Source: a bacterium | Lineage (GTDB): Bacteria > Patescibacteriota > Minisyncoccia > UBA6257 > GWB1-50-10 | Direction: 5' to 3' | Assembly: GCA_002686365.1 (NCBI GenBank) | Contig: NZBZ01000020.1 | Coordinates: forward strand, 55,484 to 119,483 | DNA: 64,000 nt | In this document: one piece after another, positions 3,845 through 64,000 of the stretch | Layout of the letters: each line of letters opens with the position of its first letter | Position numbering within the stretch: the stretch's first letter is position 1 | Notes under the pieces: model-generated | Database searches by the model: none | What the model saw: the letters and a program-made list of their open reading frames with translations, nothing else | Told to the model about the DNA's origin: nothing | Position numbers and translations under genes: made by a program

Positions 3845-4222
3845 TTATGACATCCCTCCTTCTGAAGGGTTGCTTTCACTCAATTTTTGATCCTGTTTCA
3901 AGTTCTGTTTATTGTCGTCTGAAGATGAAGGAGTGCCTCTCCTGCGAAAAAGTCTTTTAATTTTTGCCCACATCAGCTTAATGGTAAAAGATGCTCCCAA
4001 TAAGGTGGCAAGTACAATTTGAATTAAAAAGCTGCCCGTACCCGGATCAATATAGGCATCTGCTGTAAGGGGAACAATTAGAAAGTAGAAAGCAATAAAA
4101 AAAATAGCAAGAATCATATGTTCAAAAGCATACCACGAGTGAGAATGAACGCAACCATAAGATTTGTAAAACTCGTGAGGGTCTATATAATTGAAGGGCA
4201 TAAAAAATTCGCAGGAAAGCAT
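3845..4222 (-). CDS. hypothetical small membrane protein
   Basis: 125-aa ORF with two hydrophobic helices; divergent from the GT2 gene; no homology recognised. Confidence 0.3.
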   Translation of the reverse strand: MLSCEFFMPFNYIDPHEFYKSYGCVHSHSWYAFEHMILAIFFIAFYFLIVPLTADAYIDPGTGSFLIQIVLATLLGASFTIKLMWAKIKRLFRRRGTPSSSDDNKQNLKQDQKLSESNPSEGGMS

Positions 4223-12955: not shown

Positions 12956-13732
12956 TTAGGTGAGCTCAGCGCGCTGGTCTCGCCGGAAGTTAACGTACTG
13001 CCTCCCTAGCGCAGTCTCGATGTAGCGCTCAACATCGTTTTCCCATCCGAGTTCTTCGGCAATCTCCGCTCCCAGCATTCGGAGAAATTTGACGAAGAAC
13101 TGAATGCTTTCAGGATCAACGAGCGAGCGCGCCCACTCCGGAAGCCATGCGTACCACTCCAGATTCCAGAACAGGAACTTAAGAATGGAGTCTCCACTCC
13201 CCATCCGGAAGTCGAACGGGTTACTTGCGCGGTAGAGAGGGACCTCACCCCCCCCATGAGCTGCCCCATCGAATATGTTGCGACACGGCCGCATGAGCCG
13301 ACTCAGCATGTCGGCAATCTGTAACATCTGCTGGAGCTCTGTTCCGAACCCCTCATGGAACCGCTCGCCGTGGTGTACTACAGCCTGAGCAATGCGGTCT
13401 TGAGCCTCGTCATCAAACGGGCTCTTCTCGAGAAGGGTGATGCAGGTGTGATACACAGCGTCTTGCCGCGCTCTCTTGCCAAGAGCTTGGAGTGCATCTT
13501 CATCAGACACAACTCCCCGCTCAATAAGAAGCCTTGCACAGCGATCTGCATTGTGCAGGAGGGCGAGCACGAGGAACTCGTATTTGTCCACCTCATAGGG
13601 TGCGAGAGGGTAGAGCTCGTGGAAGAGGTTCGCGACCGCATTCACATGAGGCCACCCGTGTCCTCCTTCGGCGTAAGCGTAGTAGGGCCCCAGGAGGGTC
13701 CTGAGATGAGATACGAACTCTTCATGCGTCAT
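12956..13732 (-). CDS. hypothetical protein, HD-domain-like; compositionally foreign (GC-rich)
   Basis: The ORF body is about 55-58% GC against about 40% around it. Start set at the internal ATG (MTHEEF...), because the 94 aa upstream in the track ORF come from AT-rich spacer. H...H, LLHNAD and VVHHG blocks suggest an HD-like fold. Confidence 0.45.
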   Translation of the reverse strand: MTHEEFVSHLRTLLGPYYAYAEGGHGWPHVNAVANLFHELYPLAPYEVDKYEFLVLALLHNADRCARLLIERGVVSDEDALQALGKRARQDAVYHTCITLLEKSPFDDEAQDRIAQAVVHHGERFHEGFGTELQQMLQIADMLSRLMRPCRNIFDGAAHGGGEVPLYRASNPFDFRMGSGDSILKFLFWNLEWYAWLPEWARSLVDPESIQFFVKFLRMLGAEIAEELGWENDVERYIETALGRQYVNFRRDQRAELT

Positions 13733-35693: not shown

Positions 35694-36899
35694 ATGAATA
35701 TCTTAGTAGTCACAGACGCATATCCGCCGGAACTTCGCTCTTCAGCAGAGCTTATGAGAGATCTCGCAGTAGAGCTGCGTAAAGACGGGCACAAGGTATG
35801 GGTCATAACATCAGCTCCAAAAGACGCTGTTGCAGGAGGTATTGCCTTGCAAGCGGGAATAAGTGAGGAGGACGGCGTGATTGTGATTCGCGCAGATATT
35901 CCTCAGCATCACAACGTAGGATTTATTAAAAAAGGAATCTCATGGCTTCGCATGCCCCATCACTTTTGGAAAGAGGTAAAAAAAACATGCAGACACATTG
36001 ACGCTGTAATTGTTCACTCTCCTCCCTTGCCCCTTGCAAAAGTTGCGAAATACGCAAAAAAGAAATATGGAGCAAAATATATTCTGAATGTTCAGGACAT
36101 CTTTCCGCAAAATGCCATTGATTTGGGCGTTCTAAAAAACCCGCTTCTCGTCCGATTCTTTGAGAGGATGGAACAGCGCGCCTACAAAGAGTGTGATGTT
36201 ATTGTCACACCCTCATACGAGCATAAAGAATATTTGGCAAAGGAACGGAATGTCAGAGAAGACAAAGTCCATGTCATTCATCACTGGGTGGATCCAAAGC
36301 CGTTCGCAAAAGCAAAAAATACAGGGAAGTTTCGAAAGCAATTCGGATTGGAAGATAAGTTCATATTCTTTTTTGGGGGCGTTGTAGGTCCTTCGCAGGG
36401 TCTGGACATCTTAATCCATATGGGCAAGCGTCTTAAAAAAGATTATCCAAATATAGTCTTTCTTGTGTGCGGGGATGGTTCAGAAAAAGAACGTCTTGAA
36501 AATATAGTAAATCGAAGCAGGATAGAAAATGTGCGTTTTGAAAAATGGGTGTCAAAAGAAGAATATAGAGAGTTAATAAAAGAAGTTGATGTTGGCGTTA
36601 TCTCACTCGTAGGAAAAAATACCACGCCTGCAGTGCCTGCAAAGCTTATGGGCTATATGGCAGCAGGTATTCCAGCAATAGGATTTCTTCATGAAAAAAG
36701 TGAGGCGCGAAAGATTATAGAAGAGGCAAGATGCGGTCTTGGAACGTTATATGATGATGAAGATGCCTGCTTGGATGCTGTTGTCTCTATGTATAAAAGC
36801 AAGAAAAAACTTCACGAATACGGAGAAAATGCATTAGGATATGTGGAGGAAAATCTCACGCCGGAAAAATCAATAGCTAAGTGGGAGCAGGTACTGTAA
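35694..36899 (+). CDS. glycosyltransferase family 4
   Basis: GT4 architecture with a C-terminal ...PAKLMGYMAAGIPAIG motif. Confidence 0.8.
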   Translation: MNILVVTDAYPPELRSSAELMRDLAVELRKDGHKVWVITSAPKDAVAGGIALQAGISEEDGVIVIRADIPQHHNVGFIKKGISWLRMPHHFWKEVKKTCRHIDAVIVHSPPLPLAKVAKYAKKKYGAKYILNVQDIFPQNAIDLGVLKNPLLVRFFERMEQRAYKECDVIVTPSYEHKEYLAKERNVREDKVHVIHHWVDPKPFAKAKNTGKFRKQFGLEDKFIFFFGGVVGPSQGLDILIHMGKRLKKDYPNIVFLVCGDGSEKERLENIVNRSRIENVRFEKWVSKEEYRELIKEVDVGVISLVGKNTTPAVPAKLMGYMAAGIPAIGFLHEKSEARKIIEEARCGLGTLYDDEDACLDAVVSMYKSKKKLHEYGENALGYVEENLTPEKSIAKWEQVL

Positions 36900-36904
36900 A
36901 AAAT

Positions 36905-37070
36905 ATCAACATCTCGACATCTCGATATCTCAACATCTCGAAATAATAGAAGGAGTCTCGACATCTCGATATCTCAAAATCTCGAAATAATAGAAGGAGT
37001 CTCGATATCTCAATATCTCAAAATCTCGAAATAATAAAAGAAATCTCAACATCTCGATATATCGAAATAA
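36905..37070. repeat. ATCTCGAT-type short tandem repeat array (locus 1), higher-order roughly 50-nt units x3
   Basis: atctcgacatctcgatatctcaacatctcgaaataatagaaggagtctcg recurs three times with variation. Confidence 0.85.
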
Positions 37071-37080
37071 TTAACATTTT

Positions 37081-38199
37081 ATGAAACACATAACATTGGT
37101 ATTTGGAACAAGACCAGAAGCAATAAAACTCGCTCCAGTAATCGAGCGTCTTCGAGCTACTCCTGAAATAAAAACAACTGTCTGCGTATTCCGCCAGCAG
37201 GGAAGCATGCTCAGTCAGACTCTAAAGGCATTAAATATTAAGCCGGACCTTGATTTGAAAATTGAAATAAGCGATCGCACAGTACTCGGAGAACATATTG
37301 GGCTTCTCAAAAAAGGAATCGCAGGAGTCGGATCTGGTTTTGGACTTTTAAAATATCTAAAATTTCTAAAAAAAGAAAAACCAGACCTATTAATAGTTCA
37401 GGGCGACACGTCAACAGCCTATCTTTCTGCGTGGCTTGCATTCCACTTTAAAATAAAAATTGCCCATGTTGAGGCAGGACTACGAACATATGACAAGTAT
37501 GCTCCATTTCCAGAGGAGATGAATCGGCAGCTCTTGGGACGCCTTGCAGATATCCATTTTGCCCCAACTGAAAAAGCAAAAGAAAATCTTCTAAAAGAAG
37601 GAGTTCCAGAAAAAGATGTGCATGTAGTAGGGAACACTGCAATTGACGCGCTTCTTAAAGCTGCTGAAAACATTGAAACTGCAGAATCGCAGGAAAAGAT
37701 GATTCTTGTAACAGCTCACCGCAGGGAAAGTTTTGGTCAGGGGCTAAAAGATATTTGTAAAGCTCTAAAGGAAATTGCAGAAGGCCACAAAGACATCAAA
37801 ATTATCTACCCAGTGCATGCAAACCCCAATGTTTCAAAACCAGTGCAAGAGCTATTAAAAGATGTGCCAAACATAGAACTCACTGATCCAGTAGATTACA
37901 AAGAAATCGTGCGCTTAATGAAGCAGTCATATTTGATTCTCACTGACTCTGGGGGAATTCAGGAAGAAGCCCCGTCTTTAGGCAAGCCGGTTCTTGTAAT
38001 GCGTGAAGAAACAGAGAGGGAGGAGGGAGTGAAAGCTGGCGTAAGCAAACTTGTAGGAACTGATAAAGAAAAGATTATAAGAGAAACTGAAGAGCTCTTA
38101 GAAAACAAAGAGGCGTACGAGCAGATGGCCCGCACTGAAAACCCCTACGGAGACGGTAAGGCGTCAGAGAAAATCGTAGAAGTTCTCTCCAAATCTTAA
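37081..38199 (+). CDS. wecB: UDP-N-acetylglucosamine 2-epimerase (non-hydrolysing)
   Basis: MKHITLVFGTRPEAIKLAPV...HVEAGLRTYDKYAPFPEEMNRQL; collinear with WecB/MnaA. Confidence 0.92.
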   Translation: MKHITLVFGTRPEAIKLAPVIERLRATPEIKTTVCVFRQQGSMLSQTLKALNIKPDLDLKIEISDRTVLGEHIGLLKKGIAGVGSGFGLLKYLKFLKKEKPDLLIVQGDTSTAYLSAWLAFHFKIKIAHVEAGLRTYDKYAPFPEEMNRQLLGRLADIHFAPTEKAKENLLKEGVPEKDVHVVGNTAIDALLKAAENIETAESQEKMILVTAHRRESFGQGLKDICKALKEIAEGHKDIKIIYPVHANPNVSKPVQELLKDVPNIELTDPVDYKEIVRLMKQSYLILTDSGGIQEEAPSLGKPVLVMREETEREEGVKAGVSKLVGTDKEKIIRETEELLENKEAYEQMARTENPYGDGKASEKIVEVLSKS

Positions 38200-38320
38200 C
38201 ATCTCGATATATTGATATCTCGATATCTCGATATTTCTACATCTCAATATAGGTAAGAAATTCCAATATCTCGATATCTCGAAATAGAAAAAGTAAGCTC
38301 GATATATCGATATCTCGAAA
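38200..38320. repeat. ATCTCGAT-type short tandem repeat array (locus 2)
   Basis: catctcgatatattgatatctcgatatctcgatatttc...atctcgatatctcgaaat... Confidence 0.85.
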
Positions 38321-38324
38321 TACA

Positions 38325-39499: not shown

Positions 39500-39530
39500 A
39501 CTCCATCCTTTTATCTTCTCCCACCACATA

Positions 39531-39636
39531 TCAACATCTCGATCTTTCGACATCTCAGAATCTCGATATCTCGATATCACAGCATCTTTATGTCCAGAAA
39601 TATTAGTATCTCGATATCTCGATATCTCGATATTTG
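39531..39636. repeat. ATCTCGAT-type short tandem repeat array (locus 3), lying inside the 580-aa minus-strand track ORF
   Basis: ...atctcgatatctcgatatcac...gtatctcgatatctcgatatctcgatattt. Confidence 0.85.
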
Positions 39637-39648
39637 TAAGAGGAGAGT

Positions 39649-40069
39649 ACAAAATAGCATCTTCTTTTAGTTCAGGAATATCAGACTTTTCTAATTGAAA
39701 AATAAGTTCTTCAGGCAGGACAATGCGTTCAGGGAGCGCAGGGTGAAGCGGGGCAATAAGTCCAACAGTATCTCCTGCTTTAAGGGCTCCATTATCCGGT
39801 CCCTCAATAATCTTTCCTATGCCGTATGAAACATACTTCTCATTTCTTCGGCCTTCCCGAAGTCTGGACCATGTTTTCGTAATAAGTCCTTCAAGGCCTA
39901 CAACAGGAAAGTAGTTCCAAAGAAGCCGCAGACTTTTCTGCCTTGTGTGATACACGCCGGAAAGACGCTCAAGGTTCTTAAAAGCAAGAATTTGAACGCG
40001 ATATTCAGTGGGGTTTCTATAATAATCCAGATATCCATCCCTCCACTTTTTGCCGGTTAATATCCTCAT
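39649..40069 (-). CDS. hypothetical protein (N-terminal 140-aa part of the 580-aa track ORF; separate gene or fused domain)
   Basis: ATG MRILTGKK... preceded by a TTG-started ORF; no recognised domain. The boundary with the downstream oxidoreductase is ambiguous because of the stop-free repeat. Coordinates approximate. Confidence 0.3.
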
Positions 40070-40318: not shown

Positions 40319-41989
40319 ATGAAAAAATACATATTCACCACACTGGTCGCGAGCATACTCATAACACTCCTTGCGAGCACTTCAGTTCGAGCAGAGGAAA
40401 CAGGAAGTGACGCAAGCGCAGTCGACGGAGACTCCTCAAGTGTCACAATAGTCGATGGGGTAGAGTCAGATGATATTAGTGTCGACAAAACAGAGTCAAA
40501 CGACGTTAGTGTTGATGGAAGCTCTCCAACTAAGGATTTCATCTGTACAATGGAGTACGCTCCAGTATGCGGAAAAGACAGCAAAACATACTCAAATGAG
40601 TGCATGGCAAAAGGATCTGGAGTGGAAGTTGCGTATAAAGGGGAGTGTAAGGACATCATAGTAGTGCCTGCGCTCGACGCAACCCAACAGCCAAATCTGA
40701 TAAAGCCGCCTACTCCTAACGAGTCAGGAGCTATAACAGAATCAGTTAAAGACATAAGCATAGACAGGGACAAAGACAAACGAGCTATTAAAATAGAGAA
40801 ACGACTCTTTGTTGCTCCTATCCGAGCAGTAGAAACTACTAAAACAGAAAAAACAAACTGCGGAGTGGAAGGGAGGCTTCTCGGAGAATACAATAGACTG
40901 ATTCTCGAACTTAAGCGGGCAGAGCGGGCAAAACAAGAAGAAAAGCAGAAGGATATAATGCAGCAGATTAGGAAGCTGAAGGAAGAAATAAACAAAGAAA
41001 GAGAGGGGTGCAATATTGTCCGGCCAACTATTATAAGATCGACAACACAATCAAAGCCAGCTCCAGTAACTGCAAAGCCATCAGTAAGGCCTATAAGCGC
41101 AGAGCTGAAAAATATAGAAGTTCTCAGTCTATGCAGGCAGATTCCAGCTTTGGACAGAAAAATTGAATTTTACAAAAATGCATCTGAGGACGCATCCGAG
41201 GAAACAAGCTTCTCTGAAAAAGATATGGAGAAAATAGTGGAAGAGCTTATCGATCGGAAAGAAGCAATCAGAGAGAAGTATGAATGTAAGGAGGTAGTAG
41301 AAATACAAGATGCTGTTGCTATAAGCGCAGATGGAGATTACGAAGGCCCAATCATGAAACCTATCGTGCCAGACTCTGTAAAAGAAATTGGAAGATATTA
41401 CAGGGCGCGCATTGAAGAGGCAACTGAGACAGAAGAGGGAGAGGAGGAAGAGGCTCAAATTGAACGTCTTCGCGAGGTTCGTATAGAAGTGGACGGACTT
41501 GTAAAGAAATTCATCAAGAGCAAAAAAGAAATCAGAATGGAGGATTTGCAGGGAGTTACAGAAACAATAAACATTCAAAAAGGAAGAATTCATGCAGATG
41601 ATGTATCTGTAGAAGCAGAAGGAAAAACAATTCAGCTTTCAGAAAAGATACGCATTAAGCCAATGCGAAGGAGGGTGTTGATTCAGGAGGGGGAGTTGGA
41701 AATAGAAGCGCAGAACATCACAGTTGAAGATGGAGAGATGAAGGTTGGAAAAGGAAAGGCGCCGGTAAAAATTTCAGCAGAATGGGTAGTGCAGAATATT
41801 GAAAAGCCAATACAAAAAATTGAACTAAAAGAAGAGAATAACAAGGCAGTATATAAAATAAAAGTAAGGGAGCAGAAAAAATTCCTCGGCTTCATTCCAA
41901 TGAGAATATCAAAAACACTGAAGGTAGAGGCAGAAGAGGGTGAGCAGATCGCAGAAGAATTCCCTTGGTACTCATTCCTTTTCAGGTAA
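40319..41989 (+). CDS. secreted Kazal-domain protein with long E/K-rich coiled-coil region
   Basis: Signal peptide MKKYIFTTLVASILITLLASTSVRA. CTMEYAPVCGKDSKTYSNECMAKGSGVEVAYKGEC matches Kazal C-x(n)-Y-x-PVCG-x-DG-x-TY-x-N-x-C...C spacing. Confidence 0.7.
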   Translation: MKKYIFTTLVASILITLLASTSVRAEETGSDASAVDGDSSSVTIVDGVESDDISVDKTESNDVSVDGSSPTKDFICTMEYAPVCGKDSKTYSNECMAKGSGVEVAYKGECKDIIVVPALDATQQPNLIKPPTPNESGAITESVKDISIDRDKDKRAIKIEKRLFVAPIRAVETTKTEKTNCGVEGRLLGEYNRLILELKRAERAKQEEKQKDIMQQIRKLKEEINKEREGCNIVRPTIIRSTTQSKPAPVTAKPSVRPISAELKNIEVLSLCRQIPALDRKIEFYKNASEDASEETSFSEKDMEKIVEELIDRKEAIREKYECKEVVEIQDAVAISADGDYEGPIMKPIVPDSVKEIGRYYRARIEEATETEEGEEEEAQIERLREVRIEVDGLVKKFIKSKKEIRMEDLQGVTETINIQKGRIHADDVSVEAEGKTIQLSEKIRIKPMRRRVLIQEGELEIEAQNITVEDGEMKVGKGKAPVKISAEWVVQNIEKPIQKIELKEENNKAVYKIKVREQKKFLGFIPMRISKTLKVEAEEGEQIAEEFPWYSFLFR

Positions 41990-42002
41990 ATCCATAAATC
42001 TC

Positions 42003-42031
42003 AAACACCTCCGCATTGCCGGGGGTGTTTT
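42003..42031 (+). terminator. rho-independent terminator of the Kazal-protein gene
   Basis: AACACCtccgcattgccgggGGTGTTTTG. Confidence 0.5.
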
Positions 42032-42039
42032 GTAAGGGC

Positions 42040-42660
42040 GTATAAATTCTAAGGCGGCAACTCACGGTCACGGTGTTGCCGCCTTCGATCATGCACGAAC
42101 CGCATGATTAAACATAGGTATAGGCTGATTAGGCTGCTCGTGTCGCCTAGTTAGTCCTTGGCCTTCGTTGTGGGCGTAACGATCTCTGCCGCCTCTTTGA
42201 CGGTCGCGTCTCGACGTCTCTCGAGCACGTCTGGTCTAAGCATGAATGTCTCCCATAGGCACGGTGTGCTCCAGAGAGCCATGGAGCGTTATTGCCCATA
42301 ACTCCAAAGAACTAATTTCAGTATAACAAAATATAAAGACGTATATATAACAAGACGGCATTCTCGGTCCCGAATGCCGCCCTATCTAAAATCCGGACAC
42401 GCCGGACTATTGGCGTGTAATTGCGTGCTACCATTTAGCAGCACAGCCCTGTTCGATACCACAGAACTAATTGCAGTATAACGAAGACGTCTATAAATTC
42501 CAAGGCGGCACTGATCCACTGACCAAGATGCCGCCTTACGATTTTGGGTGTGTACAAGGTACCTGCAGAGTATCCCTAGGTCTAGGCACCGAGCGCATTA
42601 AGTGCTGCCGTTTAGCAGCGCAGCTCTGTTCGATACCACAGAACTAATTGCAGTATAACA
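42040..42660. repeat. GC-rich non-coding island with three tandem TATAAATT-promoter-like + GGCGGCA...TGCCGCC hairpin units and two about 60-nt direct repeats (GTGCTRCCRTTTAGCAGC...CCACAGAACTAATTGCAGTATAAC)
   Basis: Hairpins at 42051-42085, 42355-42382 and 42503-42537. Direct repeats at 42424-42490 and 42601-42658, with a partial copy at 42296-42327. GC is about 55% against about 40% in the flanks. Confidence 0.8.
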
Positions 42661-42706
42661 AAAATTAAAGATACTCCAAATATCCCTTGGCAAGTACTGG
42701 GGTTGA
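42661..42706. repeat. 45-bp direct repeat (copy 1) duplicating the 3' end of the downstream GT4 gene
   Basis: aaattaaagatactccaaatatcccttggcaagtactggggttgag versus ttaattaaagatactccaagtatctcttggcaagtactggggttgag at 43165-43208 (41/45 identical). Confidence 0.8.
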
Positions 42707-42802
42707 GTTGACAAAAACTGTATCTAGGTTCAAAGTAGGAACAGCTTAAGCGCGCAACAGGTATCATCCAAGTCAAAGTGCCCGCCAGCAGGAGATCCCA
42801 GC

Positions 42803-43066
42803 ATGACAGAGCCAGTAGGAAGAGGAATTTGTCTTTACGGACATCCAGCGTCCCTGCCTTCAGACAGTGAGATGGAATGGATGGTCCGAAAAGCCGGAGG
42901 ATTGGAACGCGACGAGGTGAACGCTACAACAAGGCCACGGAAGGACGGAATATGGGTCGTCGTGGCCATCATTGGTTCATCGGTGTCAGACGAAAAGTGG
43001 CAGAGAGTCGTGGATGCCGTCTCGGCGATTTCCGTGCCTCTCTCGGCACTTCGACAGGCCTCATAG
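42803..43066 (+). CDS. hypothetical 87-aa ORF inside the GC-rich island (doubtful)
   Basis: ATG ORF with no homology recognised; it lies between the two 45-bp direct repeats. Confidence 0.2.
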   Translation: MTEPVGRGICLYGHPASLPSDSEMEWMVRKAGGLERDEVNATTRPRKDGIWVVVAIIGSSVSDEKWQRVVDAVSAISVPLSALRQAS

Positions 43067-43164
43067 CCCCCGCTACGTACGCCGAGAAGAACGCTATTCT
43101 CCATCGTAACCCGTCTCAAGCTAACCAAAGCAGAGGCGGATTTTTTTCGCTCAGGTTTTCGTTA

Positions 43165-43208
43165 ATTAAAGATACTCCAAGTATCTCTTGGCAAGTACTG
43201 GGGTTGAG
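43165..43208. repeat. 45-bp direct repeat (copy 2), overlapping the last 8 codons and stop of the GT4 gene
   Basis: See copy 1; the sequence encodes ...AKRYLEYL* on the minus strand. Confidence 0.8.
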
Positions 43209-44377
43209 AAGTGCTCCTTTGTGAAAATATACCCCCTCTCTCCCAAAAGACTTCTTCTAGATTTACTTTTGGAGAGCTGGAGAATTGCTTTCTTAATATG
43301 TTCTCTGTCTCCGGGCTTTGTGCAGATGCCGCACTTTGCATGCTTGCATACTAGGTCTGCTGTGACTCCCTCCATCGCAGCAATCACGGGCCTTTTCAAA
43401 GCCATATAATCCAAAACCTTAGTAACATAGACATATTTTAAAAAGTTTTCTCTTCTAAGAGAGACAACACATATATCAGATGCAGAGATATATCCTGCAA
43501 TCTTATCTCTGGGAACAGGATCTAAAAACTCTACATTTCGAATGCCATAGGCCTTTGCCCGATTCATAATGTGTGACTTCTGCCTGCCGTCTCCGATAAA
43601 GGCAAAGTGAACATTCGCGGATTCTTCCTGAAGGCTATATGCAGCATCAAGCAGAGCATCAAAATCATATGCAGGACCATGAGAGCCGCTATAGAGTATC
43701 ACGCACTTATCATCCCACCCCAACTCACTGCGAAGCCTGAACCCATCCTGCGATTTATCTCTGATAAGATCAAACTCAACAGGATTTGGAACAACCCCGA
43801 TAATATCTTCTGGCACTCCTTTTCTTTGTACTAAAAACTGTTTAAATCCCGGAGAGTTCACAACAATCCTTCGAGCCCTCTTATACAAAAATCGTTCAAA
43901 AGAGTAGGCCATTTTAATAAGAAGTCTGTTTTTCATCCTTCCGAGCTCAATAGCCTCATCAGGAAAAAGACCCTGTACTTCGAGCACAAATGGTACACGC
44001 CTAATACGGCTCACAAAATATCCGGCAAATCCCAAAAGAATAGACGGAGAAGAGGCAATAATAACACTCGGCTTTTTTACAAGCAGTCCGGCAATAAGAG
44101 CTGAAATAAAAAACGTGCCATGTGAAAGCACGCGCCCCACAAATGTCCTATACCATATAAACGTACTCCACACCCGAAGAATCTCAGCAGCTCCATCCTT
44201 CTCCCGATAAATAAGTCCGGCTTTAGCGTATCGCTTTCCAGTCATGTAGTTAAACATGCCGGCGATAATAGTCGTATCATATCTGTCCTGTTTCCAGTAC
44301 TTTGAGAATAAATTAAAACGGGATATACCCGCCTCATTTAATCTCGTATAAAACTGATGGAAGACTAAAATTTTCAT
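43166..44377 (-). CDS. glycosyltransferase family 4 (WcaI-like)
   Basis: MKILVFHQFY... start used (the track ORF extends 26 aa further into asnB); C-terminal GT4 domain. Confidence 0.85.
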   Translation of the reverse strand: MKILVFHQFYTRLNEAGISRFNLFSKYWKQDRYDTTIIAGMFNYMTGKRYAKAGLIYREKDGAAEILRVWSTFIWYRTFVGRVLSHGTFFISALIAGLLVKKPSVIIASSPSILLGFAGYFVSRIRRVPFVLEVQGLFPDEAIELGRMKNRLLIKMAYSFERFLYKRARRIVVNSPGFKQFLVQRKGVPEDIIGVVPNPVEFDLIRDKSQDGFRLRSELGWDDKCVILYSGSHGPAYDFDALLDAAYSLQEESANVHFAFIGDGRQKSHIMNRAKAYGIRNVEFLDPVPRDKIAGYISASDICVVSLRRENFLKYVYVTKVLDYMALKRPVIAAMEGVTADLVCKHAKCGICTKPGDREHIKKAILQLSKSKSRRSLLGERGYIFTKEHFSTPVLAKRYLEYL

Positions 44378-53649: not shown

Positions 53650-53672
53650 TGAGCCAGCGGCCGGATTTGAAC
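53650..53672 (-). other. tRNA 3' fragment (T-loop + T-stem 3' strand + acceptor 3' strand CGCTGGC + discriminator)
   Basis: Minus strand TTCAAATCCGGCCGCTGGCTCA; the acceptor strand is exactly complementary to the GCCAGCG 5' fragment at 53836-53855. Confidence 0.5.
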
Positions 53673-53684
53673 ATTTATTACTTG

Positions 53685-53757
53685 AGCCACCTCCCGGATT
53701 TGAACCGGGGACCTTCACTTTACGAAAGTGCTGCTCTACCAACTGAGCTAAGGTGGC
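53685..53757 (-). tRNA. tRNA-Arg (anticodon ACG)
   Basis: GCCACCTTAGCTCAGTTGGTAGAGCAGCACTTTCGTAAAGTGAAGGTCCCCGGTTCAAATCCGGGAGGTGGCT folds as a cloverleaf with 7-bp acceptor, D and T arms and anticodon loop TTCGTAA; CCA is not encoded. Confidence 0.85.
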
Positions 53758-53835
53758 ATTGCTCTTCCGGGGCGAGCCCCGATATACTAAAATCACTGTA
53801 GCTCGCCCGTTGAAAGCAAAATCGTTTGCTTTCAA

Positions 53836-53855
53836 CCCAACTGAGCTACGCTGGC
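53836..53855 (-). other. tRNA 5' fragment (acceptor 5' strand GCCAGCG + D-arm start TAGCTCAGTTGGG)
   Basis: Minus strand GCCAGCGTAGCTCAGTTGGG, then a perfect 11-bp hairpin instead of the rest of the D-arm. It is preceded by a leader homologous to the tRNA-Arg leader (GGCTCRCCCYGGAAGAGCARTGCC). Confidence 0.5.
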
Positions 53856-53929
53856 ACTGCTCTTCCAGGGTGAGCCTCGAAAGTAACACCTCCATACTAA
53901 TCAAGAAAACATAATAGGTAAAGCATATT

Positions 53930-61620: not shown

Positions 61621-62163
61621 ATGACACCGCGTCAAAAAATTACGCTTATTGTTTCAGTGGTTGTTGTTCTTGCGCTTGTAATCGTAGGCAGTCTCGCAAG
61701 AAGAGGTGAAGAAGCAGAACCAGAGCCGGAAATAGGAAATGGAACAGAAAAAGTAGTACTGCAGGATGAAAAGAACATTGACGCGCCTGAAGTAATAGAA
61801 AAAGAAAAAATATTTACTCCAGAAATACCTAAATTCGTTACGCCAACTAAACCAAAAAAAGAATCTCCTGCAAATGAAAAAATGGGAATCAGTTTCGGGT
61901 TATATGAAATTAAAGTAGATAAAAATGGATTTACGCCCAACAGCATCGCTGTAAATAAAGGAGACATTATAGATCTGAAAATTCAGGCAGTTGATGATGA
62001 CTATGATTTTGTAATTCTATATTACGGAGCATATATCTTGATAGAGAAGGGGACCACTGGGACATTAAGCTTTGGAGCAACTGATACAGGAACAATTATG
62101 TTCACATGCCGCGATCTGTGCCCGAACGAGGGAAAGAAAGGAGAGTTTATCGTTATTCCATAA
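61621..62163 (+). CDS. membrane-anchored cupredoxin-like domain protein, paralogue of 60803-61399
   Basis: Start set at MTPRQKITLIV (TATAAT at 61607-61612, 8 nt upstream). C-terminal ...IAVNKGDIIDLKIQAVDDDYDFVI...IMFTCRDLCPNEG is paralogous to the upstream gene. Confidence 0.45.
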   Translation: MTPRQKITLIVSVVVVLALVIVGSLARRGEEAEPEPEIGNGTEKVVLQDEKNIDAPEVIEKEKIFTPEIPKFVTPTKPKKESPANEKMGISFGLYEIKVDKNGFTPNSIAVNKGDIIDLKIQAVDDDYDFVILYYGAYILIEKGTTGTLSFGATDTGTIMFTCRDLCPNEGKKGEFIVIP

Positions 62164-62265
62164 ATATCAATATGTAGAAATATCGACATATCGAGATATC
62201 AAAATATCAAAATATCAACATATCGAAATATCAATATATCAACATATCGATACATCGAAATATAA
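62164..62265. repeat. ATCTCGAT-type short tandem repeat array (locus 5, opposite orientation: ATATCGARATATC)
   Basis: atatcgacatatcgagatatcaaaatatcaaaatatcaacatatcgaaatatcaatatatcaacatatcgatacatcgaaat. Confidence 0.85.
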
Positions 62266-62267
62266 AA

Positions 62268-62744
62268 ATGGTTTCAATAGAAAAATTCGAAGATTTAATA
62301 TGTTGGAAAAAATCAAGAGAGTTAGCAAATTTCATATATGATATAACGGACAAATCAGAGTGGAAGGATTTCGACTTGAGAAGGCAAATTCGAAGAGCAG
62401 CAACTTCTCCAATGTCAAACATTGCAGAGGGATTCGACAGAGGCACAAGAAACGAGTTTGTTGACGCGCTGTTTATCGCAAAAGGAGAAGCCGGAGAAGT
62501 AAGAAGTCAGCTATATATCGCATATGATAGAAAGTTTATAAACGAAGAAATGTTAAAAAGAGGACAAGGGCTCACCGATGAGTGCTCAAGACTGATTCAA
62601 AGCTTCACTCACAAAGTAAAAGGAGGTTCTAGGAGGGGATTACAGTTCAAGCAAGTAAAGAAGCCAGACCAAATAACAACATTGTTTAAAAAAGAATTTC
62701 CAGATGCCTATAAAGAAATGAACAAAAACAGACAGGATATATAA
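62268..62744 (+). CDS. four-helix-bundle protein (23S rRNA intervening-sequence protein family, TIGR02436/PF05635-like)
   Basis: ICWKKSRELANFIYDIT...LRRQIRRAATSPMSNIAEGFDRGTRNEFVDALFIAKGEAGEVRSQLYIA matches the family consensus (...QIRRAA.SI.SNIAEG..R.....F...L.IA.GS..E...QL). Confidence 0.8.
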   Translation: MVSIEKFEDLICWKKSRELANFIYDITDKSEWKDFDLRRQIRRAATSPMSNIAEGFDRGTRNEFVDALFIAKGEAGEVRSQLYIAYDRKFINEEMLKRGQGLTDECSRLIQSFTHKVKGGSRRGLQFKQVKKPDQITTLFKKEFPDAYKEMNKNRQDI

Positions 62745-62754
62745 TAAAAATAGC

Positions 62755-62825
62755 AAAATATCGATATATCGATATATCGATATATCGACATATGAATATG
62801 TCAAAATATCGAAATATCAACATAT
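62755..62825. repeat. ATCTCGAT-type short tandem repeat array (locus 6)
   Basis: aaaatatcgatatatcgatatatcgatatatcgacatatgaatatgtcaaaatatcgaaatatcaacatat. Confidence 0.85.
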
Positions 62826-62837
62826 AGGCATAGAAAA

Positions 62838-64000
62838 ATGAAACGCAATATACACACAAGAGTACTAATGCTAAGCGCAGCAGCACTTCTTGCTGTAGTT
62901 GGAATACAAGTGCAAGCTGCCTTCCAAGGGCCTCCTGCAGGAATAAATCCTCCAAATGGAGGAGGATTGTTTGGCCTAGATCCAAATAGAAATATAGAAT
63001 TTTTTGATATTCAGACCGAGAGCGCAAACGCAACGCCGGAAACTCAGCGTGCAGATGGCACAAAATGGGGGAGAATCTTCATGATAACCTCCAGCAGTAA
63101 CCCAGGCATAGGATTGAAAAATCTTACATCCGGAAAGAGATACATTTTAAGTGCTGAAAACGACGGCCAACTTGCTATCTGGGATGATACTGCAGGAGCA
63201 ATTAGGCTGCATATTGAAAGCAACGGCAACATAGGAATCGGGAGTACGAATACTGCGATAGATGTACTGCATGTTTTTGGAAATGCCAAGGCAGAAGAAT
63301 TTAGAGGAAGAATCTCCGCAGGATATGTAACTGGCGGCGTCGTATTCGGCTCCCTTACTACGCAAGTATCAGCCTATGCGTTTCCAACTGCAGTAGGAGT
63401 TGGAACAACTTCTGCAGGAGGAATACAGGCAGACGCATTGTATGTTGCCGGCAATGTAGGCATAGGAACAAAAGACCCTCAAGATAAGATTGATATTCGG
63501 GGGGCAGCAGGAGGAGGAATCACAATCGAAGGAACAGCGCCAGGCATCCGTTTTGGCACAGATGCTGCTCTTGGGTATGCAACCCTAGATAATCACTATT
63601 CTACAAATGCAACCCCTGGAGACATAGTACTGCGGGCAGACACTGATGATGATGTAATTTTCACATCAGGATCAAGAGCTGCGCAGCTCATAGTAAAAGG
63701 AGATACAGGAAATATAGGAATTGGCATGGCAAGTCCAGGAGCAAAGCTTGTAGTTCGAGCTAATTCAGGCATAGATGATGGTATTCATGTACAAAATAAT
63801 GGAGGCACAAATGTTGCAACACTGCAGGCAGAAAATATAGATTCAGGATTTTTAAGATTATATGACGGTCCGACACAGAATGTTTTAATGAGTGGAGAAA
63901 CTGGCGGAGTGAGTTTTATAAATTCCGGAAGAGTAGGCATAGGCACTACAGCTCCAGTAACAAAACTTGAGGTTGCAGGAGACATTGTAGGAGACACATT
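62838..64000 (+). CDS. secreted repeat protein with tail-fibre-like G-N-[IV]-G-I-G-[TS] repeats; 5' part, continues beyond the window
   Basis: The ATG at 62838 gives the signal peptide MKRNIHTRVLMLSAAALLAVVGIQVQA. The frame stays open to nt 64000, with repeated ...GNIGIGSTNTAIDVLHV..., ...GNVGIGTKDP..., ...GNIGIGMASPGAKLVV... and ...GRVGIGTTAPVTKLEV... blocks. Absent from the track because no stop is reached. Confidence 0.55.
   Translation, partial: MKRNIHTRVLMLSAAALLAVVGIQVQAAFQGPPAGINPPNGGGLFGLDPNRNIEFFDIQTESANATPETQRADGTKWGRIFMITSSSNPGIGLKNLTSGKRYILSAENDGQLAIWDDTAGAIRLHIESNGNIGIGSTNTAIDVLHVFGNAKAEEFRGRISAGYVTGGVVFGSLTTQVSAYAFPTAVGVGTTSAGGIQADALYVAGNVGIGTKDPQDKIDIRGAAGGGITIEGTAPGIRFGTDAALGYATLDNHYSTNATPGDIVLRADTDDDVIFTSGSRAAQLIVKGDTGNIGIGMASPGAKLVVRANSGIDDGIHVQNNGGTNVATLQAENIDSGFLRLYDGPTQNVLMSGETGGVSFINSGRVGIGTTAPVTKLEVAGDIVGDT

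Follow-up and report, generated by a model that had tools for sequence, protein, structure and literature searches.

In the window, a stretch of 64,000 nucleotides of contig NZBZ01000020.1 from the metagenome-assembled genome (MAG) of an uncultured marine Patescibacteria-like bacterium, a short GC-rich segment, here designated D, is found at the 3′-end of a gene encoding a GT4-family glycosyltransferase, between two copies of a 45-nt sequence that carries the end of this gene. Base composition and flanking sequences support that D is foreign DNA inserted at the 3′-end of GT4. D may be a single-copy, non-autonomous cassette of the mobile insertion cassette (MIC) or miniature inverted-repeat transposable element (MITE) type, bounded by inverted repeats, and the probability of this reading is estimated at roughly 0.4. 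D is a genuine one-off insertion scar, present in a single copy and with evidence for mobility being absent. The features of the locus are as follows:

42663-42707, minus strand: distal, displaced copy of the direct repeat, now non-coding and followed by UUUAAUUUUUGUU.
42708-42718, plus strand: putative left terminal inverted repeat (TIR), TTGACAAAAAC, whose first 6 nt form a perfect −35 hexamer, TTGACA.
42708-43163 (456 nt) or 42708-43165 (458 nt), plus strand: insert D, a GC-rich compact gene cassette.
42790-42794, plus strand: Shine-Dalgarno-like AGGAG, read from the sequence, 8 nt 5′ of the ATG (42803) of the open reading frame (ORF) ORF87.
42803-43066, plus strand: ORF87, an orphan of 87 aa, convergent to GT4.
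43111-43147, plus strand: intrinsic-terminator-like hairpin with a run of seven T (T7), read from the sequence, the stem being present in both minimum free energy folds.
43155-43165, minus strand: putative right TIR, TTAACGAAAAC when read inward and GTTTTCGTTAA as the terminus of the insert.
43164-43208, minus strand: gene-proximal copy of the direct repeat, which supplies the functional end of GT4 (13 codons and the stop codon) and 2 nt beyond it.
43166-44377, minus strand: GT4-family glycosyltransferase gene, 403 aa, with its stop codon at 43166-43168 (tta on the plus strand).

The two copies of the direct repeat agree in 43 of 45 positions, where the first-pass annotation had counted 41 of 45, and they cover the final 13 codons of GT4, its stop codon and 2 nt more, instead of the eight codons, stop codon and 18 nt described there. 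The duplication itself is real, although its coordinates had to be shifted by 1-2 nt: the 41-nt core of the repeat occurred exactly twice in the 64 kb at a tolerance of up to 3 mismatches, and shuffled sequence (n = 100) gave 0 matches, so that chance was far exceeded. When the whole intergenic region was compared with the window by low-stringency BLAST, no third copy of the 45-mer appeared.

The gene-proximal copy codes for S T P V L A K R Y L E Y L (STPVLAKRYLEYL), followed by the stop codon and 2 nt, and contains a perfect 7-bp hairpin, AGAUACU-UGG-AGUAUCU, which overlaps the GT4 stop codon and was flagged as terminator-like by the terminator scan. The distal copy departs from it by two substitutions, AGA>GGA (Arg>Gly) and TAC>TAT, both of which convert Watson-Crick pairs of the hairpin into G.U pairs. 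The hairpin of the distal copy together with UUUAAUUUUUGUU is probably the ancestral GT4 terminator. In the relatives of GT4, one at 72% identity and 12 at ~45-52%, the Arg position is occupied by Arg, Lys or Gln and in none of them by Gly. It follows that the Gly is derived and that the distal copy has drifted as non-coding DNA.

D abuts both 45-nt repeats exactly. Its GC content is 0.53 (0.51-0.58) against the window average of 0.41, which agrees with the initial description of a GC-rich insert containing an 87-aa ORF. The longer, 458-nt version of D counts the ambiguous AA at 43164-43165 into the right inverted repeat. D resembled no other sequence of the window, GT4 included, and none in the fetched loci. 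The odd composition, the exact abutment of the repeats and the drift of the distal copy all sustain the initial claim that foreign DNA was placed at the 3′-end of GT4, with a second copy of the gene end keeping the gene whole. D was also considered as a structured RNA. Its two strands gave fold z-scores of −1.0 and +0.4, which is no better than shuffled sequences, and a ribozyme, a riboswitch or an intron was thereby ruled out. At the gathering threshold, Rfam 15 detected two tRNAs only in the whole window, and in an E-value scan of 41900-43300 the top match was sX14 with 17 bits against the 80 needed.

The termini of D provide moderate evidence for TIRs. The left end TTGACAAAAAC and the reverse complement of the last 11 nt of D (TTAACGAAAAC) agree in 9 of 11 positions, and the inverted repeat extends from the first base past the left direct repeat to the base that adjoins the GT4 stop codon. 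Matches to the degenerate motif TTRACRAAAAC were confined to these two sites in the 64 kb, in inverted orientation, with 0.22 expected by chance. Random pairs of ends drawn from the window equalled the quality of the inverted repeat in 0.2% of trials, and with the null conditioned on AT-rich ends or on the anchored score the range was 0.2-0.9% (p 0.002-0.009 overall). These imperfect 11-bp inverted ends argue for a transposon-type insertion with staggered nicks rather than a crossover at att sites.

The single gene carried by D is probably real. ORF87 is preceded by the Shine-Dalgarno-like site and followed by the terminator-like hairpin, in which CCGTCTC (43111-43117) pairs with GAGGCGG (43133-43139) over 7 bp. 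The T7 run reported earlier in the insert is confirmed at 43141-43147, after this hairpin and 19 nt short of the GT4 stop codon. The hairpin was left unreported by the terminator scan because its loop is 15 nt long. The length of ORF87 alone is not significant, since 10% of Markov shuffles reach such a length. Its frame has the top codon score among the six frames, with G-rich first codon positions. Single-sequence AlphaFold2 modelling of ORF87 gave a predicted local distance difference test (pLDDT) score of 80.7 and a predicted template modelling (pTM) score of 0.69 with 36 residues ≥90, whereas the control, an antisense overlapping ORF of 97 aa, reached a pLDDT of 50.9 and had zero residues ≥70. 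Coding score and model confidence, set against the antisense control, indicate that ORF87 is probably a real protein, which is predicted to adopt a small alpha/beta fold of the order beta-alpha-beta-beta-alpha. The ORF had been called doubtful by the first-pass annotation; with a ribosome-binding site, a terminator, the best coding frame and a confident model it is probably genuine.

ORF87 remains an orphan. Among 5.8 billion protein clusters it matched only itself, and among 1.84 billion representatives it matched itself and a single weak hit, P0122 (E = 4.8e-4). P0122 is a membrane-anchored protein of 731 aa with seven 66-aa repeats (FGxPxxLPKDW...) and an OmpA/MotB-like C-terminus. Its likeness to ORF87 lies mainly in a G-x-P-A-x-LP-x-D motif, and homology is not claimed, the profile of the P0122 repeat scoring only ~10 bits on ORF87. 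No Pfam, PHROG or NCBIfam match was obtained for ORF87, tblastn against plasmids and phages gave no significant match, and a Foldseek search with the model against the PDB and BFVD gave no significant fold match.

The events behind this arrangement may be depicted as follows, in a sequence of steps in which the staggered nicks, the mobilisation in trans and the argument from survival are all inferred. The cassette would be 458 bp long and carry imperfect 11-bp TIRs and a passenger gene composed of the −35 box in the left TIR, the AGGAG site, ORF87 and the hairpin with T7. A transposase or integrase supplied in trans, and now no longer traceable in the vicinity, would attach the cassette at two nicks, one per strand and 43-45 bp apart. 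One nick would lie at or 2 nt past the GT4 stop codon and the other 42 nt inside the gene, and gap repair would then duplicate the intervening 43-45 bp. As the duplication spans the last 13 codons and the stop codon, GT4 would be left intact on one side. On the other side the old terminator hairpin would persist, together with the sequence that precedes unit C, the nearest of the RNA-like units described below. With both neighbours kept intact, the survival of an insertion in such a crowded spot would be explained. The derived Gly of the distal copy is what is expected if the two copies were identical at insertion. The drift of the displaced copy, 2 of 45 positions with one Arg>Gly, suggests that the event is old and that the element is now an immobile scar.

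Several points weigh against this origin. The inverted repeat is short, with 2 of its 11 bp mismatched, and was noticed post hoc. It falls short of significance when the 80-nt ends are aligned locally without anchoring, so that the case for it rests on its exact terminal position. A target duplication of 43-45 bp is far beyond the usual 2-14 bp, and the termini start with TT, whereas C is the consensus first base in the IS1634 family of insertion sequences (IS). The position of one nick within 0-2 nt of the stop codon becomes a coincidence, estimated at about 1 in 20, which is naturally predicted by both of the main rival explanations set out below.

The searches for mobility genes and further copies weigh in the same direction. 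They covered ~80 kb of the genome in total, that is the 64-kb window with 17 kb on its flanks, of which 10 kb lie upstream and 7 kb downstream. A Pfam scan of every ORF of at least 100 aa in the window found no recombinase or transposase domain, and this bears out the earlier statement that the window lacks an integrase; neither was a recombinase or transposase present among the genes called in the two flanks. Neither D nor its end motif nor any of the RNA-like units A-C recurred in the 17 kb of flanks. A 22-mer of the repeat was absent from the JGI metagenomes and from IMG/VR, and the whole intergenic region had no match in distant mode against phage and plasmid records. In all, no second copy of D was found in the ~80 kb of genome, GTDB genomes, JGI metagenomes, IMG/VR, phage and plasmid records or 15 billion proteins, and this material likewise lacked a transposase and any parent IS sharing the ends of D. 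The database search of the insert and the 87-aa ORF that had been proposed thus returned no other copy or homolog, and copy number lends no support to the suggestion of a novel small mobile unit, D being single-copy in all collections searched.

Compared with known elements, D comes closest to MICs and MITEs. A MIC is defined operationally by inverted repeats, the lack of a transposase and a target duplication (PMC3913671). With MIC231 of Bacillus cereus, mic-qnrD of Proteeae and MITEs, D shares its small size, imperfect inverted repeats and the lack of an internal transposase; a duplicated target on both sides and a passenger gene equipped with signals for its expression are further features in common with MICs. 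Terminal inverted repeats, an abutting target duplication and the absence of an internal transposase are accordingly all seen in D, and further copies or a parent IS are found neither in the ~80 kb of genome nor in the collections. D differs from MICs in a duplication of 43-45 bp against 2-12 bp, in inverted repeats of only 11 bp, in having no cognate IS and no second copy, and in its host, a Patescibacteria-like MAG.

To our knowledge, IS1634 and IS1549 are the only well-documented bacterial transposons with direct repeats of tens to hundreds of bp. Their direct repeats range from 8 to 514 bp and have no accepted mechanism (PMC2266710), and the 43-45 bp of D fall within this range. These are autonomous elements of 1.5-2 kb with a DDE transposase and ends beginning with C, whereas D is without a transposase and has TT ends. 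Membership of the IS1634 family can be dismissed, as there is no IS1634-like gene in the region and the ends are TT instead of C-----YT (PMC2266710).

Casposases, which are integrases of the Cas1 type, act on inverted-repeat elements with a fixed 15-bp stagger at a target that overlaps a gene 3′-end next to a palindrome (PMC5137440). D resembles casposons and mini-casposons in its inverted-repeat ends, its longish duplication and its target at a gene 3′-end beside a palindrome. Casposons, however, have target-site duplications of 14-16 bp, a length of 8-20 kb and genes for Cas1 and PolB, and a spacing of 43-45 bp would be unprecedented for them. No Cas1 was found in the regions read, and with a duplication of 43-45 bp against 15 bp (PMC5137440) D does not qualify as a casposon. 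By analogy, a Cas1/casposase or IS1634 logic with a much longer ruler might be imagined, in which D would be the first seen of a class of miniature inverted-repeat cassettes of Patescibacteria whose integrase nicks ~45 bp apart across the palindromic hairpin of a gene end and terminator. The existence of such a class is regarded as quite unlikely.

Among the rival explanations, a Campbell-type integration survives best and is possible, if somewhat doubtful. In this version of the first-pass idea, a small circle, or a larger element since cut down to 456 bp by internal deletion, would have carried the last 45 bp of GT4 as attP and entered by a crossover catalysed by a tyrosine or serine integrase acting in trans, or by RecA on the 45 bp. 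The two 45-mers would then be attL and attR, and the gene-proximal copy would be partly derived from the element. This is the commonest source of such repeats. A repeat that equals the gene 3′-end and stops within 2 nt of the stop codon is expected if it was selected to restore the reading frame, the non-identity of the copies (43/45) is allowed from the outset, and the 45-mer is full of short palindromes.

Integration at the 3′-ends of protein genes, which had been presented at first as unusual for integrative elements, is familiar: phage 21 and e14 duplicate the 3′-end of icd, and ICESt1 and the cis-mobilisable elements (CIMEs) duplicate that of fda. CIMEs that lack an integrase remain in place between their att sites and can build up as tandem series. 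D is similar to such att-flanked remnants at icd and fda in that direct repeats of the target 3′-end keep the gene intact, whereas the elements at icd and fda measure kilobases, can be assigned to families whose integrase is known and have no inverted termini. D has no integrase, no family and no second instance. The direct repeats that include a gene 3′-end are as in site-specific integrative elements, and an integrase within or adjacent to D is missing. A single crossover with a circular molecule duplicates the homologous segment (PMC3240628). This origin has against it that no integrase is encoded in the 64 kb and the 17 kb of flanks, that an insert of 0.5 kb is too small to encode one, that inverted termini are not predicted, and that no related element and no second use of the att sequence was found in the collections searched. 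The Gly in the distal copy needs a later mutation here too.

It is unlikely that D is the remnant of a replacement, in which DNA of a related strain with GT4 followed by D would have replaced the resident allele in a hot spot for recombination in a glycan locus. The left crossover would have been homologous and upstream, the right joint illegitimate and 42 nt before the resident GT4 stop codon, and the 45-bp duplicate would be the undeleted tail of the old allele after DNA uptake and homology-facilitated illegitimate recombination (HFIR). The window is mostly a glycan-biosynthesis cluster of ~45 kb, and clusters of this kind are well known as mosaics shaped by recombination. A further orphan gene of high GC content in the cluster (12956-13732) and a nested tRNA remnant (53650-53880) fit this view, the latter suggesting that imprecise replacement has happened elsewhere in the genome. 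The similarity ends just past the stop codon, as for two alleles with different downstream DNA, and the copies differ (43/45).

HFIR and the related single-crossover duplications have been documented, for 109-950 bp and with plasmid substrates (PMC3240628), and like their products D is foreign DNA beside a duplicated or leftover stretch of a recipient gene. HFIR, however, predicts neither inverted termini nor a cassette-like gene unit, both of which are seen in D, and the inverted termini would become a coincidence with the p-values given above. An unobserved donor in which D already followed GT4 is required, so that the origin of D is merely pushed back one step. The joint between D and the 45-mer is without evident microhomology beyond a TCAAC doublet, and no variant alleles were found in the assemblies from several marine metagenome samples.

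Finally, that no insertion took place and the 45-mer is a generic terminator or repetitive extragenic palindromic (REP)-like motif, or that a tandem GT4 paralog decayed into D, is highly improbable and essentially excluded: the 45-mer does have a terminator-like hairpin and the intergenic region is rich in other repeats, but only two copies exist in the 64 kb and none in the other fetched loci or collections, contrary to a generic motif shared by many genes, the base composition of D differs, D bears a foldable ORF on the opposite strand, and a decayed paralog is ruled out by the lack of any residual similarity of D to GT4.

The target gene was traced in related and conspecific sequences. The GT4 protein has the Pfam domains Glycos_transf_1, Glyco_trans_4_4 and Glyco_transf_4, and an identical protein is encoded on four public contigs. 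Homologs at 72% and ~51% identity belong to Patescibacteria, and a search of the GTDB genomes found no relative. Public contigs with the same GT4 or the same Kazal-domain protein, encoded on the other side of the intergenic region, originate from several marine samples; they are identical where covered (>99.9%), with the insert present. In the 72%-identity relative (a 1,066-nt contig) the GT4 stop codon overlaps an unrelated convergent ORF, and in the ~51%-identity Patescibacteria relatives GT4 overlaps a convergent asparagine-synthase gene (AsnB). The whole region between GT4 and the Kazal gene is lineage-specific and the gene order differs in relatives, hence there is no empty-site comparison.

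One 4-kb contig, L002 (sample ERZ5402418), ends 4 nt past the GT4 stop codon at the edge of D (its positions 4079-4082 equal 43162-43165 of the window). It was rejected as an empty allele, because its 4 nt match the filled allele and its coverage is 2.3x, and its end at this edge is probably due to chance. Contigs of the same population from different samples differ elsewhere by single nucleotide polymorphisms (SNPs) and by a change in repeat number. Past the end of the window, contigs L011 (12812-13834) and L012 (3991-5013) differ by one SNP and by a change in repeat copy number that amounts to ~255 nt. The varying gene encodes 1332 aa with a Phage_phiTE_241_C domain and is called as pieces of 481 aa and 518 aa in two contigs.

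Two further features frame the insert on its distal side:

40319-41989, plus strand: gene for a Kazal-domain protein (Pfam Kazal_1, Kazal_2), with a hairpin terminator at ~42005-42031.
42034-42339 (unit A), 42340-42489 (unit B) and 42490-42671 (unit C), minus strand: tandem structured-RNA-like units outside D, delimited by the repeat families D1, D2 and D4 and by alignment.

The Kazal gene is convergent with GT4, and the gap of 1.17 kb between the two is the largest non-coding stretch of a tightly packed window. Units A-C lie directly downstream of the displaced 45-mer in the sense of GT4, the 45-mer adjoining unit C upstream. A TATACT −10 box is common to all three units, with TG extension in A and in C, and unit B has the promoter-like site TTGGAA-17-TATACT. 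The stem-loops at the 5′-end are conserved among the units, the middle parts cannot be aligned with one another, and every unit contains a 15-bp GGCGGCA/TGCCGCC hairpin. The minus strand folds more stably than the plus strand in unit B (−55.8 kcal/mol, z −5.8, against −35.3, z −2.3) and in unit C (−58.6 kcal/mol, z −3.4, against −47.9, z −1.6), and the minus-strand fold of unit A has a z-score of −3.4. None of the units had an Rfam match, and the motif of A-C was absent from GTDB genomes and IMG/VR. Judged by these signals, units A-C are candidates for tandem, paralogous small-RNA genes running in the same direction as GT4, and they resemble OmrA/OmrB in that the ends are conserved and the centre is divergent.

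Other irregularities were noticed in the window. The ORF at 12956-13732 (minus strand) in the glycan cluster is an orphan of 258 aa with a GC content of 0.55 and a GC content at third codon positions of 0.64 against 0.41 for the genome. It had no Pfam or NCBIfam match and is probably another piece of foreign DNA. At 53650-53880 (minus strand), an intact tRNA-Thr(CGU) (53684-53757) is nested inside a split second tRNA, of which the 5′ 19 nt (53837-53855) and the 3′ 22 nt (53650-53671) are left and whose acceptor halves GCCAGCG/CGCTGGC pair. The 25 nt upstream of both tRNA 5′ parts are also duplicated, giving a 44-nt direct repeat with 86% identity. It appears that a segment bringing a replacement tRNA has split a tRNA gene or taken its place, and this is the second site in the window where an insertion is surrounded by a duplicated gene end. 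An 8-nt periodic motif (ATCTCGAT / ATATCGAT) forms arrays at 36882-37068, 38180-38321, 39523-39651, 62138-62310 and 62700-62856. They are mostly intergenic and some are organised in 44-nt super-units ending in AGGAG; one array lies inside an ORF of the GFO/IDH/MocA family and two flank a gene of the 23S-rRNA-IVP family.

As it stands, D is one old, fixed, single-copy scar with an orphan gene, of value as an annotated example and not yet evidence for a new mobile family. The locus yields an in-silico empty-site sequence, with GT4 as '...GGAGTATCTTTAATT|TTTGTTATACTGCAATTAG', which can be checked in Tara Oceans reads. If a class of cassettes with nicks ~45 bp apart did exist, its members could enter the gene 3′-ends of compact genomes and spare both neighbours. 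If the staggered nicks are true, D would be a rare case of a target duplication of tens of bp outside IS1634/IS1549, and would illustrate how foreign genes can enter a packed, reduced genome at the border of a gene with no function lost.

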